From assembly GCA_964016885.1 (NCBI GenBank), contig OZ024741.1, positions 278,752,001 to 278,816,000 on the forward strand: a stretch of DNA of 64,000 nt. The letters are read 5' to 3'. Shown here one piece after another: positions 12,227 through 58,924 of this stretch (position 1 is the stretch's first letter; each line of letters opens with the position of its first letter). The notes under the pieces were generated by a model, which did no database searches, was not told the DNA's origin, and saw only the letters and a list, made by a program, of their open reading frames with translations. The stretch comes from Eledone cirrhosa. Lineage: Eukaryota. The translations under genes were made by a program, and so were the position numbers.

Positions 12227-12418
12227 ACGAAGGAGTTGTGGTAAGGAACCAGATGGACCATAACGCACCAGAGTACTCAATTCTTAGGGTAGTAGAGTGG
12301 GTAATGGGAAAAAGTATAACCCCGACGGCAGAGCTCAAGCCGTTTCAACGGCTATTTCTGGACCCGAAATAGCCGTCGAAACGGCTTGAGCTCTGCCGTC
12401 GGGGTCATACTTTTTCCT
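12227..12418. mobile_element. (TA)n-flanked fold-back element with ~50-bp hairpin
   Basis: Arms 12310-12358 and 12366-12418 are inverted; homologous copy in opposite orientation at 56850-57048. Confidence 0.8.
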
Positions 12419-12733
12419 ATATATATATATATATATATATATATATATATATATATATATATATATATATATATATATATATATATATATATGTATGTAT
12501 GTATATGTACGTTTATACATTTTAAAATGCTTAAATGCTTAAGTTTTATTTTGAAATGCGTGTTTCCTCTGTCTTCTATTACCAACATTTTCAGCAATTT
12601 TGTCCACAACTATATATGCTTTTTACTGTACTTCATTTATCTATAATTACATGTATTTTACTTTATTTTATCGCATTTTATCTGCTCCTGATTTGTTATC
12701 TTCTCAGATGGTTGGTTACCTTATATAAATATT

Positions 12734-12937
12734 GATTTCTTTATTAGCCACAAGGGCGCAACAAGAAAGGGGACAATACAAAGACATGCCGGGGATTTTA
12801 CATACAGTCGTGTAAAAAATATAAAAACAAACAATTTCAACAATCGAAATCCCCAATAGCGGGGAGGCGCCACAAATGGGTTGTTTAATACCCCGTCGAT
12901 AGAACAACCCTCAACTCAAGGAGCGTGTTGTGCAAGT
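12734..12937 (-). mobile_element. Very short 5'-truncated L1/Tx1-like LINE (3' UTR only) with 19-bp TSD
   Basis: Reverse complement of 272-476; TSD GTTACCTTATATAAATATT at 12715-12733 and 12938-12956. Confidence 0.9.
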
Positions 12938-13249
12938 GTTACCTTATATAAATATTAATGCTTGCTCTTATCTAACCTCTCATAACATGTATCCTCCAAA
13001 TGTTCCTGAAGCAAAGTTTAGACCCTAACTCTTGTAATAAGGATGAAGATTCCTATCCTGTGCTAGGATGAAACGGTCGTTAGTTATTGAATGTTTGAAA
13101 GATCAAATACTCTTTTATTATTTACATTGTATTTCGACACTGTATTATACTTGTTATATTACATCGAGCTATATTCATACTTGTAACTGGGTAATATTTA
13201 ATATTACTCACCATATATATATTTATACTTATATATATATGTATGTATG

Positions 13250-13478
13250 TATCCCGGGTTTAATCGGGGGTAACCACAGTAAGTAAGGTACTCAATACAT
13301 AGTAGAGTATATATAAGATTTAATATAGAAATGGCTTCTACAGGACTAGAACTGTTTCATTCAAAGGAAATCATCAGTGCCCGTTGTGACATAGCAAGCC
13401 ACACCGGACACTAGAGTAATTCCTTTATTTTCCTCGGAAGAAGAGATATTAATCTCGAAATATCAGGCCATGTGAATA
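13250..13478. mobile_element. Penelope-like terminal fragments with degenerate HHR motifs
   Basis: Minus CTGATGA-TTTC..GAAT-GAAAC near 13343-13385; plus CCT-CGGAAGA-AGAGAT..ATCTC-GAAAT-ATC-AGG at 13432-13467; homologue at 52843-52978. Confidence 0.55.
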
Positions 13479-13774
13479 AATTAATTGTTTCTATTTTTGG
13501 CACAAGACCAGCAATTACCCAGTACATTACTGGTACTTTATTTTATCGACCCCGTAAGGATGAAAGGCAAAGTTAACCTCGGCGGGATTTGAACTCAGAA
13601 TTAATGTAAACAAACAAGCCCTGTTTCTTACAATTTAATTATTCTCCGTCTAAACCACCATTGTCGTGGCTTTCAAACATCGAATTCTTTATATATATAA
13701 AGAATTCGATGTCTGAATATATATATATATATATATATATATATATATATATATATATATATATATATATATAT

Positions 13775-15110
13775 GTGTGTGTGTGTGTGTGTGTGTGTGT
13801 GTGTGTGTGTGTGTGTGTGAGTGTGTGTGTGTGTGTGAATGTGTGTGTATTACATTTGCGTTTTAACTTAAATGTATGAATGGTTAAGTCCTTGACTATC
13901 TTTAATTCCATCTACCTTTGAGAGTGTGTGTTTAGGTATGCGTGCATGGATATATATGTATGTGTATATATATTAATATATGTGTGTGTGTGAATACATA
14001 TGTATACATGTATGTCCATATAGCTACCTGTGTCTGTGTAAACCGCTCAACCATTGTGTATATATATATAAACACATACATATACATATGTATATATACA
14101 TATATATGTAAATATATATATATATATATATATATATATATATATATATATATATATATATATATATATATATATATATATATATATATATATATATATA
14201 AACACATACATATACATACATATATATATATATAAACACATACATATATATATATATATATACATATACACGTATATATATACATATGTATATATACATA
14301 TATATGTAAATATATATATATATATATATATATATATATATATATATATATATATATATATATATATATATATATATAAACACATAGATATACATATATA
14401 TATATATACATATATATATATATATATATATATATATATATATATATATATATATATATATATATATATACACACACATACACATATCCATACATACATA
14501 TACCTAAATATACATACATGCAAATCTTCAAATATAGATCTGAGGAAGGGGTGGATCCAAGTAATTACGTTGTTCAGTTTGCAAGTAGCCAAGTAGTCAT
14601 TAAAATCATGGATGCACACATACATAAAAACACAGACACACACATGTATATATATATATATATATATATATATATATATATATATATATATATATATATA
14701 TATATATATATACATACACAATGGTTGAGAGGTTTACATCAAGATAGATACACAGACACAGGTAGCTATATGGACATACATGTATACATATGTTAATATA
14801 TATACACACACATATATTAATATATATACACATACATATATATCCATGCACGCATACCTAAACACACACTCTCAAAGGTAGATGGAATTAAAGATAGTCA
14901 AGGACTTAACCATTCATACATTTAAGTTCAAACGCAAATGTAATACACACACACACGCAAACACACACACTCACATTCACACACACACACACACACACAC
15001 ACACACACACACACACACACACACACACACACACACACACACACACACACACACACACACACACACACACACACACACACACACACACACACACACACAC
15101 ACACACATAT
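13775..15110. repeat. ~1.3-kb inverted repeat with microsatellite-rich arms
   Basis: 13835-14060 is the reverse complement of 14715-14960. Confidence 0.85.
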
Positions 15111-56270: not shown

Positions 56271-56808
56271 CGAGAATAATCCCAAAAGAAAGGTCTCCAA
56301 AGCGATGGGGACGCAGAGATATTGAAACTTTTCCGTTAAAATCCTGTGGATGATGATTCGGGAAACCAAAGGAACCAAAATGCAGATAGTGTGACCCGCC
56401 GATCTTTACGCATGTTTTCCTGAACCTTTGCGACTGTCATGTCGGAAATTGACGGTCTCCCGCTCCTTTGTTCGTCGGCAATTTCATTACGACCGGCTGT
56501 ACACTCTCTACACCATGCACGACTGTCCATACACTTCCGTCAATTGGCGATGAATTTCAATCGGTTCAACGCCTTTTGAGTTCAAAAACCGAATAACTGC
56601 GCAAACTTCACACTTGGCGGTAGCGTTCAACGGGAGCTCCATTCTCAACGGCTGCCAAGCCAAGATTGAGCATCCCAGCGAAGCGCGCGCATGCTTGTTT
56701 GGGAGTGAAGGAAGCACCAATCACAACAGTGTTGCCAACAGCCGTACGAACACAGTTTGTCTGCGTCCCCATCGCTTTGGAGACCTTACTTTTGGGAGAT
56801 TATCCTCG
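56271..56808 (-). mobile_element. Internally deleted mariner in (TA)n
   Basis: ~47-bp TIRs (CGAGAATAATCCCAAAAGAAAGGTCTCCAAAGCGATGGGGACGCAGA and its near complement), TA flanks; AVIRFL..EIHRQLTEVYG..RSGRPS HTH region. Confidence 0.88.
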
Positions 56809-56849
56809 TATATATATATATATATATATATATATATATATATATATGT

Positions 56850-57048
56850 ATAGGAGAGAGTATGACCCCGACGGCAGAGCACAAGCCATTTCGACGGCTA
56901 TTTCTGGACGTCCTGAAATAGCCGTCGAAACAGCTTGAGCTCTGCCGTCGGGGGTCATACTCTCTCCTATTACCCACTCTACTACCCCAAGTATTGAGTA
57001 CTCTGGTGCGTTATGGTCCATCTGGTTCCTTACCACAACTCCTCCGTT
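56850..57048. mobile_element. (TA)n-flanked fold-back element, sister of 12227-12418
   Basis: Homologous, opposite orientation. Confidence 0.8.
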
Positions 57049-57491
57049 ATATATATATATATATATATATATATATATATATACGATATTAAATAAATGG
57101 AAACTATATTTATAAAACCATATTTATTTCATTATATATATTTCAGGGATATCATATTAACAATATGTTATGCCTTCTTCAGACAAAATACAATATAGAC
57201 AGTTTTATAGATAAATAGATTTGACATACCGTTCAACATCGACTTGTATTTGAAAAAGTTGATTTGGCAAATCAACTTTTTATATCAGTTATAAATATTT
57301 ACTAGTTGTAACCCAACAATTTAAATATAACTTTCCATATATATATATATATATATATATATATATATTAAAATAACAGATTAAAGTTTAAGCAAAGAAT
57401 CTCTGCTTTCACCCTTAACGGGATCTTTTGATTTTATATATTTTGATATAAACATTATCCTTATCGAGCCCTCTTCGGATTTTAGTCTTCA

Positions 57492-57721
57492 TGACACGGC
57501 TAGGAGGTATAGGTTAAAAAGAAGATTACACACACGCACACATATATATATAGTAATAATTGTTTCTACTTTTGGCACAAGGCCAGCAAATACCCAGTGT
57601 ATTACTGGTACTACACTGGGTAATTGCTGGCCTTGTGCCAAAAGTAGAAACAATTATTACTATATATATATGTGTGCGTGTGTGTATTCTTCTTTTTAAC
57701 CTATACCTCCTAGCCGTGTCG
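57492..57721. repeat. Palindrome centred on a SINE tail
   Basis: 57492-57600 inverted at 57613-57721. Confidence 0.85.
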
Positions 57722-58924
57722 TAGGGGCGCTGTAGTGTCATACAGCGTATCTCGGTGTTTCTTTTAACATGGCGGATCCCATTTCCTCTCCAGGTTTGAA
57801 CACAACCGATTTTTTTCAGAGAAGGGGAGAGGGGTGATAAAAATAAGTAATAAAGTGGAGAAAACGGCTTGTACTTTTTATCAAACTCGAAAGGATGAAA
57901 AGCACATTTGACTTCGCCTTGGCGGGATTCGAACTCAGAGAGCAGAGAACCGAAACAAATACCGATATTCTAATAAATCGCCCACCAACTGTACCTGATT
58001 GATCTCTCTCTCTTTCTATATATACATATGCCAACAGATTAATTACTAGGAGAAAATGTTTAAGATTCAATTATATTTGATAATGATTAAAGAATATATT
58101 AAAGAAAATTGCTATATTTGATGTAAATAAAAGTAAAATGGAATTACGTGGGAAAATAATATCTAATGCAGTTCATAAATTGCCTGGACACCAAATGTCT
58201 ACTTAAAGCGAAAGAAGTCCCATGTAGTTTGTAACGGAATAAGACGCTGAGGTCGATATAGAAAAACTAGTTACAGGTGTAGAGGCCCCGAGAGAATTTA
58301 ACTGTTCTCAATATTAAATATAAACTTGACTGAAGGTTATACATAATATAATATATAATATGATACAATATAATGTATTATATATTATAAGTATGAAACA
58401 AAACCACAAATTTGTAGTTGAGGAATATATTTCTCACAAGCGGACGCAATGAAACATTGAATATATATTTGCATGTATGTGTGTATGTATGTATGTATGT
58501 ATGTATGTATGTATGTATGTATGTATGTATGTATGTATGTATGCATGCATGTATGTATTGCATATATATGAGGGTTGCACATTTTTTCGGGGGTATGTGT
58601 TACCCATATGAAATGTCTGCCCCTATTGGGGAAAATCGATTAATTTTTAAATTGCATTTGTGATAGTATTTTACACGTTTTTATTGTATGTAAACTTCCT
58701 CCTTTGTATTTGTCCCCTTCTTTTGTGCCCCTGTGTCTAATAAAGAAACATATCTATTTATCTATCTATATCTATATCTCTCTCTCTCTCTCTCTCTCTC
58801 TCTCTCTCTCTCTATATATATATATATATATATATATATATATATATATATATAAAGGACGTAAAATAAGAAAATATTTTTTTAAAAAAATTTAAAAAAA
58901 ATTTTTTTCCTTACTTAAATTTTC

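Follow-up and report, generated by a model that had tools for sequence, protein, structure and literature searches.

Lopsided inverted duplications at TA tracts of Eledone cirrhosa: their relation to Penelope-like elements and a model of insertion from two start sites

Insertions of Penelope-like elements (PLEs) carry an inverted pseudo-long terminal repeat (pseudo-LTR), a 31-bp tail that extends one inverted repeat into the first codons, head-to-head joints and captured host DNA, according to PMC3846280. PMC8557442 describes an inverted truncated copy, a tail of 30-40 bp and (TA)n targets, calls the mechanism open, and names the formation of tandem and inverted structures and the bias toward microsatellites as unsolved. 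In Schistosoma mansoni, opposite-strand pairs of minimal hammerhead ribozyme motifs spaced 100-700 bp apart have been read as truncated PLEs (PMC4209133, passage on these pairs), and 31 recently active Penelope-like families are given for Octopus vulgaris (PMC13282606). Here we describe inverted duplications in a 64,000-nucleotide (nt) stretch of the genome of Eledone cirrhosa (GenBank assembly GCA_964016885.1, contig OZ024741.1, positions 278,752,001 to 278,816,000 of the forward strand; hereafter the window, numbered from its first letter). An annotation made earlier from the sequence alone (the first-pass annotation) had proposed that a dozen unrelated palindromic elements in the window, bounded by (TA)n or similar tracts, share one architecture, and that many Penelope-dependent non-coding families integrate into TA microsatellites by a common twin-priming or fold-back route.

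The duplications are real, and their layout is mostly one already known for PLE insertions. The architecture is not new, since an inverted copy, a one-sided tail, opposite-strand hammerhead pairs and AT-rich targets have all been published for PLEs. We consider, with a probability of roughly two in three, that most of these elements are 5'-truncated PLE ends (a pseudo-LTR plus tail) or hammerhead-bearing dependants, inserted through priming by the two nicked strands of a TA-rich target at two different start sites on the RNA. The elements themselves are ordinary, being PLE ends in an octopus-like genome, and repeat pipelines could mislabel them as miniature inverted-repeat transposable elements (MITEs) or as unknowns. 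The value of the locus is mechanistic, as it touches the two problems named as unsolved above: staggered arms, a match of the inner end to the TA target and family-wide joints together give a concrete and testable model.

Anatomy of the inverted duplications

Self-BLAST of the repeat-masked window (E <= 2e-9) recovered inverted arms at all 12 proposed sites (Table 1). Arm identity is 93-99% in 11 elements and 75% over 60 nt in E10, whose arm score of 61 compares with a maximum of 30 in 500 mononucleotide shuffles. This divergence between arms argues against a fold-back artefact of reads or assembly. One arm stops on a microsatellite and the other runs 41-151 nt further, which is clear in 10 of the 12 elements, unclear in E10 and absent in E2. 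Polarity is set by a hammerhead or an open reading frame (ORF) in E3, E4, E5, E8 and E11, and wherever a motif fixes the orientation, the 3' ends face outward. The proposed common architecture holds for ten lopsided pairs; E2, whose arms are separated by some 700 nt consisting mostly of (TA)n, does not share it, and E10 is too decayed to judge.

Both ends lie within 6 nt of a (TA) tract of at least four units in 10 of the 12 elements, against a background of 1.5-2.3% of positions, although the long-arm end was partly defined from the tract itself, so that this half of the test is circular. The exceptions, E9 and E11, have (TATC)n and (TC)n, respectively, at one end each. A target-site duplication, if present, would be masked by the (TA)n tracts. 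Independent checks of the ends come from E1 and E12, which stop at the identical base, and from E6, which stops where its relative at 15118 stops. Among the ends of short interspersed nuclear elements (SINEs), 3 of 17 adjoin TA, a weak control since most SINEs sit in the TA-poor half.

The elements are not all unrelated. E1 and E12 are 90% identical over 195 nt, have the same ends and share their centre to within 3 nt; they represent one family, a unit of 191-198 nt at two places, which leaves at most 11 families among the twelve elements. Relatives within the window were found for E4 (at 43940), E6 (15118), E7 (50040) and E11 (58855), those at 15118 and 50040 being solo one-arm copies. The arms of E9 are split by a later, 5'-truncated SINE (50589-50715), which is flanked by a target duplication of about 15 nt and has a 13-nt inverted piece at its 5' end. 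A frame in E7 is open from 45193 to the end of the element and begins MTLPKHNNIG, a peptide without a match; the end 45193-45274 and the related end 50064-50097 both begin MTLPK(H/Y)NNI and may represent the first codons of an ORF not yet recognised. Two 80-nt direct repeats at 37960-38039 and 38495-38574 start with CTGA(T/C)GA and end at or near TA tracts, possibly as a direct pseudo-LTR pair.

Table 1. Inverted duplications and related features in the window; E1 to E12 follow the order of the first-pass annotation.
Feature	First-pass position	Span	Arms, tail and structure	Hammerhead
E1	12227	12227-12417	palindrome 12307-12417; 80-nt tail 12227-12306; E12 family	none by descriptor
E2	13775	13848-14945	inverted microsatellite-rich DNA 13848-14040 / 14749-14945; no tail	none by descriptor
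E3	35645	35647-36106	arms 35647-35713 / 35928-35994; tail 35995-36106	full type I, 35717-35800 (-)
E4	37032	37032-37707	arms 37073-37375 / 37395-37707; tail 37032-37072	37273-37308 (-), variant core CUGUUGA
E5	38794	38797-40109	arms 38797-39065 / 39731-39998; inner end 40001; tail 40002-40109	minimal, both arms: cores 38885 (-), 39910 (+)
E6	40140	40139-40765	arms 40210-40372 / 40602-40764; tail 40139-40209	none by descriptor
E7	45027	45031-45274	palindrome 45031-45214; 60-nt tail	none by descriptor
E8	49000	48999-49488	palindrome 49150-49486; 151-nt tail	3' half in both arms
E9	50386	50383-50789	46-nt tail; (TATC)n at inner end	none by descriptor
E10	52610	52588-52830	decayed arms 52631-52690 / 52755-52815	none by descriptor
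Additional element, 135 nt		52843-52977	head-to-head arms of the 13240 family, overlapping only ~16-20 nt; TA at both ends	
E11	53705	53704-54134	arms 53704-53817 / 53914-54027; 107-nt tail	full, 53765-53846 (-)
E12	56850	56850-57047	second E1-family copy, inverted	none by descriptor
Coding PLE relative of E4		43940-44961 (-)	5'-truncated; GIY-YIG C-terminus 44770-44961, ~800 nt non-coding, end reading MLQANFNTL	
Tandem array		58855-64000	559-nt unit; left end on (TA)n; continues beyond the window	9 full matches

Hammerhead motifs and coding relatives

Type I hammerhead motifs were searched with a strict and a relaxed descriptor, with shuffled sequence as control. The strict descriptor has 13 matches in the window and none in each of 30 shuffles; the relaxed one has nine in positions 1-59100, compared with a shuffle mean of 0.18 and a maximum of 2 (n = 40). 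Of the relaxed matches, E3, E4 and E11 contribute one each and E5 two, one per arm; a further one belongs to the array at 58855, and the remaining three are solo. Four of the twelve elements thus hold a full motif and E8 a 3' half, to which the first-pass statement that many elements carry full or partial hammerheads is reduced; seven have none by descriptor (Table 1), and truncation could have removed the motif from these. Rfam gave no hammerhead among the best 150 of 177 matches, nor in any of the 21 rows of a second scan, only microsatellite-driven miRNA noise. Minimum-energy folds of eight hammerhead regions have z-scores from +0.7 to -2.9, which is weak evidence. The helix II loops of E3 and E11 are long, and the E3 hammerhead is continuous with the tail-less arm.

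The solo hammerheads at 41224 (+), 48286 (-) and 57182 (-) occur in non-palindromic pieces, of which those at 41224 and 48286 end on (CA)n. Hammerhead-like motifs were also recognised by eye in non-palindromic pieces at 13377 (-), 31786 (-) and 49864 (+). The pieces with solo hammerheads or hammerhead-like motifs are all probably single PLE ends.

The tandem array at the right edge of the window consists of two halves arranged head to head, with the junction at 61577/61578. Its units differ by 0-2 substitutions among seven, indicating that it is very young, and it has no ORF, the longest Met-led frame being 32 amino acids (aa). The array is 80% similar to E11, and all 22 base pairs of the fold (44 of 44 cells) are kept between them with four two-sided changes, a comparison of two sequences only in which 28 of 500 shuffles score equally high. 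From their sequences, the array and E11 appear to form a retrozyme-like family, with a tandem unit that lacks an ORF and carries one type I hammerhead per copy.

The link of one family to a GIY-YIG fragment, which had been proposed for this window, was confirmed for E4 through the coding relative at 43940-44961. The 64-aa fragment encoded at 44770-44961 (-) has 41 protein matches (best E 3.5e-13, 55% identity), the nearest named proteins being from Octopus bimaculoides. Ten of the matched proteins were scanned for domains; GIY-YIG was found in seven, and RVT_1 as well in four of those. In alignment, its relatives have C-terminal CCHH residues and a cysteine linker, and by motif they would be of Neptune/Nematis type. 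Both a Pfam scan and a word-based search (0 of 21 candidates) missed the fragment. A protein-cluster atlas returned unnamed clusters at 0.95, one with GIY-YIG in 15% of its members, which we treat as a lead only.

The 3' end of the 43940-44961 piece is 72-74% similar to the E4 arms. The E4 tail reads MLQANF from 37063 (-), and both it and the 43940 piece stop about 10 codons into this frame, which is also the N-terminus of two full-length relatives of 859 aa. The two MLQANF peptides rank as the top two of 1530 ATG-led peptides from positions 1-58800 when compared with 22 long relatives. Tail and similarity together indicate that the arms of E4 are two pseudo-LTR ends from a coding family, and its membership of the PLEs is shown. 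ATG-led peptides in the remaining tails did not match the N-termini of the 22 long relatives, and no second PLE coding trace was found within the window, for the other 11 elements or elsewhere, beyond the E4/43940 family. An endonuclease remnant had been suspected inside the interior of E5 and found no support.

PLE membership is likely for E3, E5, E8 and E11; for E1/E12, E6, E7 and E9 we infer it from anatomy alone, and for E2 it is rejected. The Penelope origin suggested for the whole group thus stands for the hammerhead-bearing elements, among which the ORF-start tail places E4, and does not extend to E2, E10 being too decayed to assign. The description as Penelope-dependent non-coding families is demonstrated only for the E11/58855 family with its tandem unit; E4 has the appearance of paired solo ends from a PLE that codes for protein.

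Two start sites, fold-back and other routes

In the route that we propose, both strands of a TA-rich target would be nicked and used as primers. Copying from one of them would begin at the tail end (the outer site), and copying from the other 41-151 nt further upstream, at a short UAU(A) stretch of the RNA that might base-pair with the TA overhang. Both cDNAs would terminate at varying positions, and end joining would then unite them head to head, occasionally together with some neighbouring DNA. Arms that barely overlap would follow where the cDNA primed at the tail halted at the inner primer; if it passed the inner primer, by strand displacement or on a second RNA, a lopsided palindrome would result. 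This model starts from observations, namely the anatomy, the hammerheads, the PLE ORF pieces, the variable joints and the TA match of the inner end; nicking, priming, the number of RNAs and joining are the steps it would add. A purified PLE nicks and extends both strands, with two internal start sites bounding the tail, as reported in PMC11167929.

Copying from two sites can be separated from folding back of a single cDNA, because a folded-back cDNA recopies only its own content and is thus excluded where each arm has private sequence. This is the case in E11, whose arms map to staggered positions of the array unit (234-452 for the tail-less arm and 331-559 for the tail arm), in E3, in the additional element at 52843 and in six joints of the E5 family; two separate copying events are needed for these. 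The inner end matches the target tract exactly over 3-7 nt in six of nine families (five of nine with E1 in place of E12), including 4 nt in E7 and 5 nt in the array, whereas 0.36 families with a match of at least 3 nt are expected (p about 1e-5).

Reads of four runs, including X1, X2 and one restriction-site-associated DNA (RAD) run, were aligned to 38797-40765 at 85% likeness. Among RNA data sets, none was listed as containing this interval, which carries no information on its expression. In the RAD run, 1968 reads exit E5 at 40001 into TATATA (agreement 0.83) and 1948 first-mate-plus reads cross 40003, so that both ends are family-wide. The interior of E5 is repetitive throughout, and the summed contig depth, which is not a copy number, climbs toward the + strand end from about 1000 to 18000 in X1. 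Joints were listed for 15 of 49, those within both arms being harder to detect; their coordinates were mapped separately, and the direction of the four opposite-strand rows was deduced. Six of the 15 have the E5 body cut at 39741-39849 and joined to a reversed tail piece starting at 39996-40065, that is, arms with no or almost no overlap; one is a 36-nt skip. The other eight concern E6: one joins a tail arm cut short to the body (40202 to 40617; 2 starts among 41 reads), another is ambiguous, and the remaining six are weak, having sides under the 31 letters of the detection rule. Variable joints with fixed outer ends speak against a MITE in both the E5 and E6 families, and the E5 family is not one; the fixed symmetric termini that the first-pass annotation had named as the sign of DNA transposons are not seen in them. 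The E6 joint also carries 115 nt (40369-40483) identical to E5 39402-39516, and the private base shared there (39484/40401) differs from all contig depth at that position in X1 and X2. Copying from the adjacent DNA while the ends were joined is the likely origin of this patch, with an artefact of polishing as the possible alternative.

Given the same PLE origin, the palindromes could instead arise from a single cDNA that primes itself or folds back at a 5' hairpin, a route that PMC3846280 proposes for rotifer Penelope elements. Such a route agrees with the near-perfect centres of E1, E12, E4, E7 and E8 and the common centre of E1 and E12, with private bases common to the E6 arms at three of four distinct listed sites, one strongly, and with five E6-family contigs whose near-symmetric joints fall within 10 nt of one spot, although these have sides of 23-28 letters, below the 31-letter rule. 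E3, E11, the 52843 element and the six E5 joints cannot have formed in this way, since in them the arm without a tail extends further upstream than the tail arm. We therefore regard fold-back as an improbable general explanation that may still be at work in some copies. Less probable still is that the hammerhead-less E1/E12, E6, E7 and E9 are MITE-like or other DNA-based palindromes moving as fixed units into TA tracts. E1 and E12 do have an identical unit structure at two places, and genuine DNA transposons (the mariner-like 56271-56808 and the Helitron-like piece 54245-56227) occupy the same tracts, but the ends are asymmetric, unlike the symmetric TACGAG termini at 56271, the E6-family joints vary (40202 to 40617) and solo one-arm relatives exist at 15118 (E6) and 50040 (E7). 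DIRS-type elements have an internal complementary region that matches the terminal extension; here, no 11-mer is common to tail and rest in any of 10 tails. We give the lowest credence to rearrangement at the DNA level, either by break repair of single insertions at TA cruciforms or as two insertions in one tract. It would account for E2 and for 57493-57720, where ordinary DNA is duplicated inverted, for the locally copied patch in the E6 joint, and for E5 arms that differ about as much as the family reads. It leaves unexplained why, in 10 of 12 elements, the arms terminate differently, one at an inner site common to the family and one at the end of the tail, and why about half of the E5-family reads end at 40001.

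Several observations weigh against PLE ends primed at two sites. At their inner ends, E4, E6, E9 and the E1 copy match the tract exactly for only 0-1 nt, and priming by the purified PLE took place with no homology to the DNA that was cut (PMC11167929). Seven of the twelve elements show no hammerhead, and the window holds one PLE coding stretch. The near-perfect centres of E4, E7 and E8 and the shared E1/E12 centre fit fold-back or a fixed unit equally, and E2 and 57493-57720 are local inverted duplications in non-PLE DNA. For five of the six E5 joints, the RAD reads have a single start each and could be copies of one molecule, and the E5 arms share none of nine listed private variants, so that a single template is not demonstrated there. 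Weighing these points, the shared insertion route of the first-pass annotation is retained for hammerhead-bearing elements, with twin priming the better of its two options where they can be separated; E2 is not a member and E10 is too decayed.

We tentatively suggest that twin priming may be the default mode of PLE insertion, in which one ribonucleoprotein would prime both strands at the two sites that bound the tail, the inner one by UAUA pairing. If true, this one rule would explain why the pseudo-LTR is inverted, why the tail is one-sided, why microsatellites are favoured and why retrozyme arrays lie head to head, and it would replace the idea of self-priming. A bolder, putative extension is that slippage of the telomerase-related reverse transcriptase on UAUA also lengthens TA tracts. 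We found no paper tying twin priming to the PLE tail in a literature search whose coverage excluded most subscription papers and supplements, and of 214 metagenome stretches scanned for related loci, none was confirmed.

Other repeats and comparison with known systems

The window contains further repeats. The 98% palindrome at 57493-57720 consists of a SINE end plus ordinary flank and is not made of PLE ends; beside it lies a piece with TA at its boundaries (57369-57492), the first bases of which are found again at 56238. In a Helitron-like remnant at 54245-56227, which lies between TA tracts, Pfam recognises a frame for a PIF1 helicase (E 5e-38), and there is a hairpin with a CTAG end. Mariner-like elements with TACGAG-type termini occur at 56271-56808, with symmetric ends of 47-49 nt and weak helix-turn-helix matches, and at 41754-42301. 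A broken DNA transposon at 23756-25785, which we take to be hAT-like, has 16-nt terminal repeats and an 8-nt target duplication (CTCTAGGA); the single frame scanned has no Pfam match. Remnants of non-LTR retrotransposons (1200-6590, 18300-23550, 27050-28200 and 32060-34530) lie beside (TAA)n and (TATG)n, and an 833-aa frame with RVT_1 (E 5e-29) is open at 3011-5509. A 32-nt tandem array of about 40 copies (16457-17722) has grown from a SINE head.

Compared with known systems, the duplications resemble Tc1/mariner MITEs in short length, inverted repeats and TA flanks. MITE termini are symmetric and fixed, as in the 56271-56808 control, whereas ten of the twelve elements are lopsided by 41-151 nt, as the first-pass annotation had correctly seen; internal structure is not fixed among copies of E5 and E6 and is fixed between the two copies of E1/E12. 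L1 twin or dual priming, as given in PMC2837659, is similar in that both strands prime, one internally by short homology, leaving an inverted joint. Here there is no poly(A), both start sites are fixed within families, and the arms often overlap widely, unlike in single-RNA twin priming of L1.

The array at 58855-64000 is similar to animal non-LTR retrozymes in being a tandem unit without an ORF and with one type I hammerhead per copy (PMC7761336; bioRxiv 10.64898/2026.07.22.740005). It differs in its unit of 559 nt, against the 150-300 quoted there, in its two head-to-head halves, in a PLE-type end on (TA)n and in having E11, a lopsided pair, as a relative. E5 resembles the Schistosoma mansoni pairs in its close opposite-strand motifs, at a spacing of about 1000 nt; the passage of PMC4209133 on these pairs is silent on ends, tails and targets.

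The closest likeness is to EN+ (endonuclease-bearing) PLEs. With these the elements share 5' truncation, an inverted truncated copy, a head-to-head arrangement, a tail holding the first ORF codons, minimal type I hammerheads (in the elements that have a motif) whose helix II is preceded by a bulge, and AT-rich or (TA)n targets, as described in PMC3846280, PMC8557442 and PMC4209133. They differ in tails of 41-151 nt instead of 30-40, in the long helix II loops of E3 and E11, in the CUGUUGA core of E4 and in being mostly without coding sequence. The head-to-head inverted copy with a tail on one arm was found in 10 of 12 elements, the AT-rich or microsatellite target is likewise present, and variable 5' truncation with fixed 3' ends was seen in reads for the E5 and E6 families.

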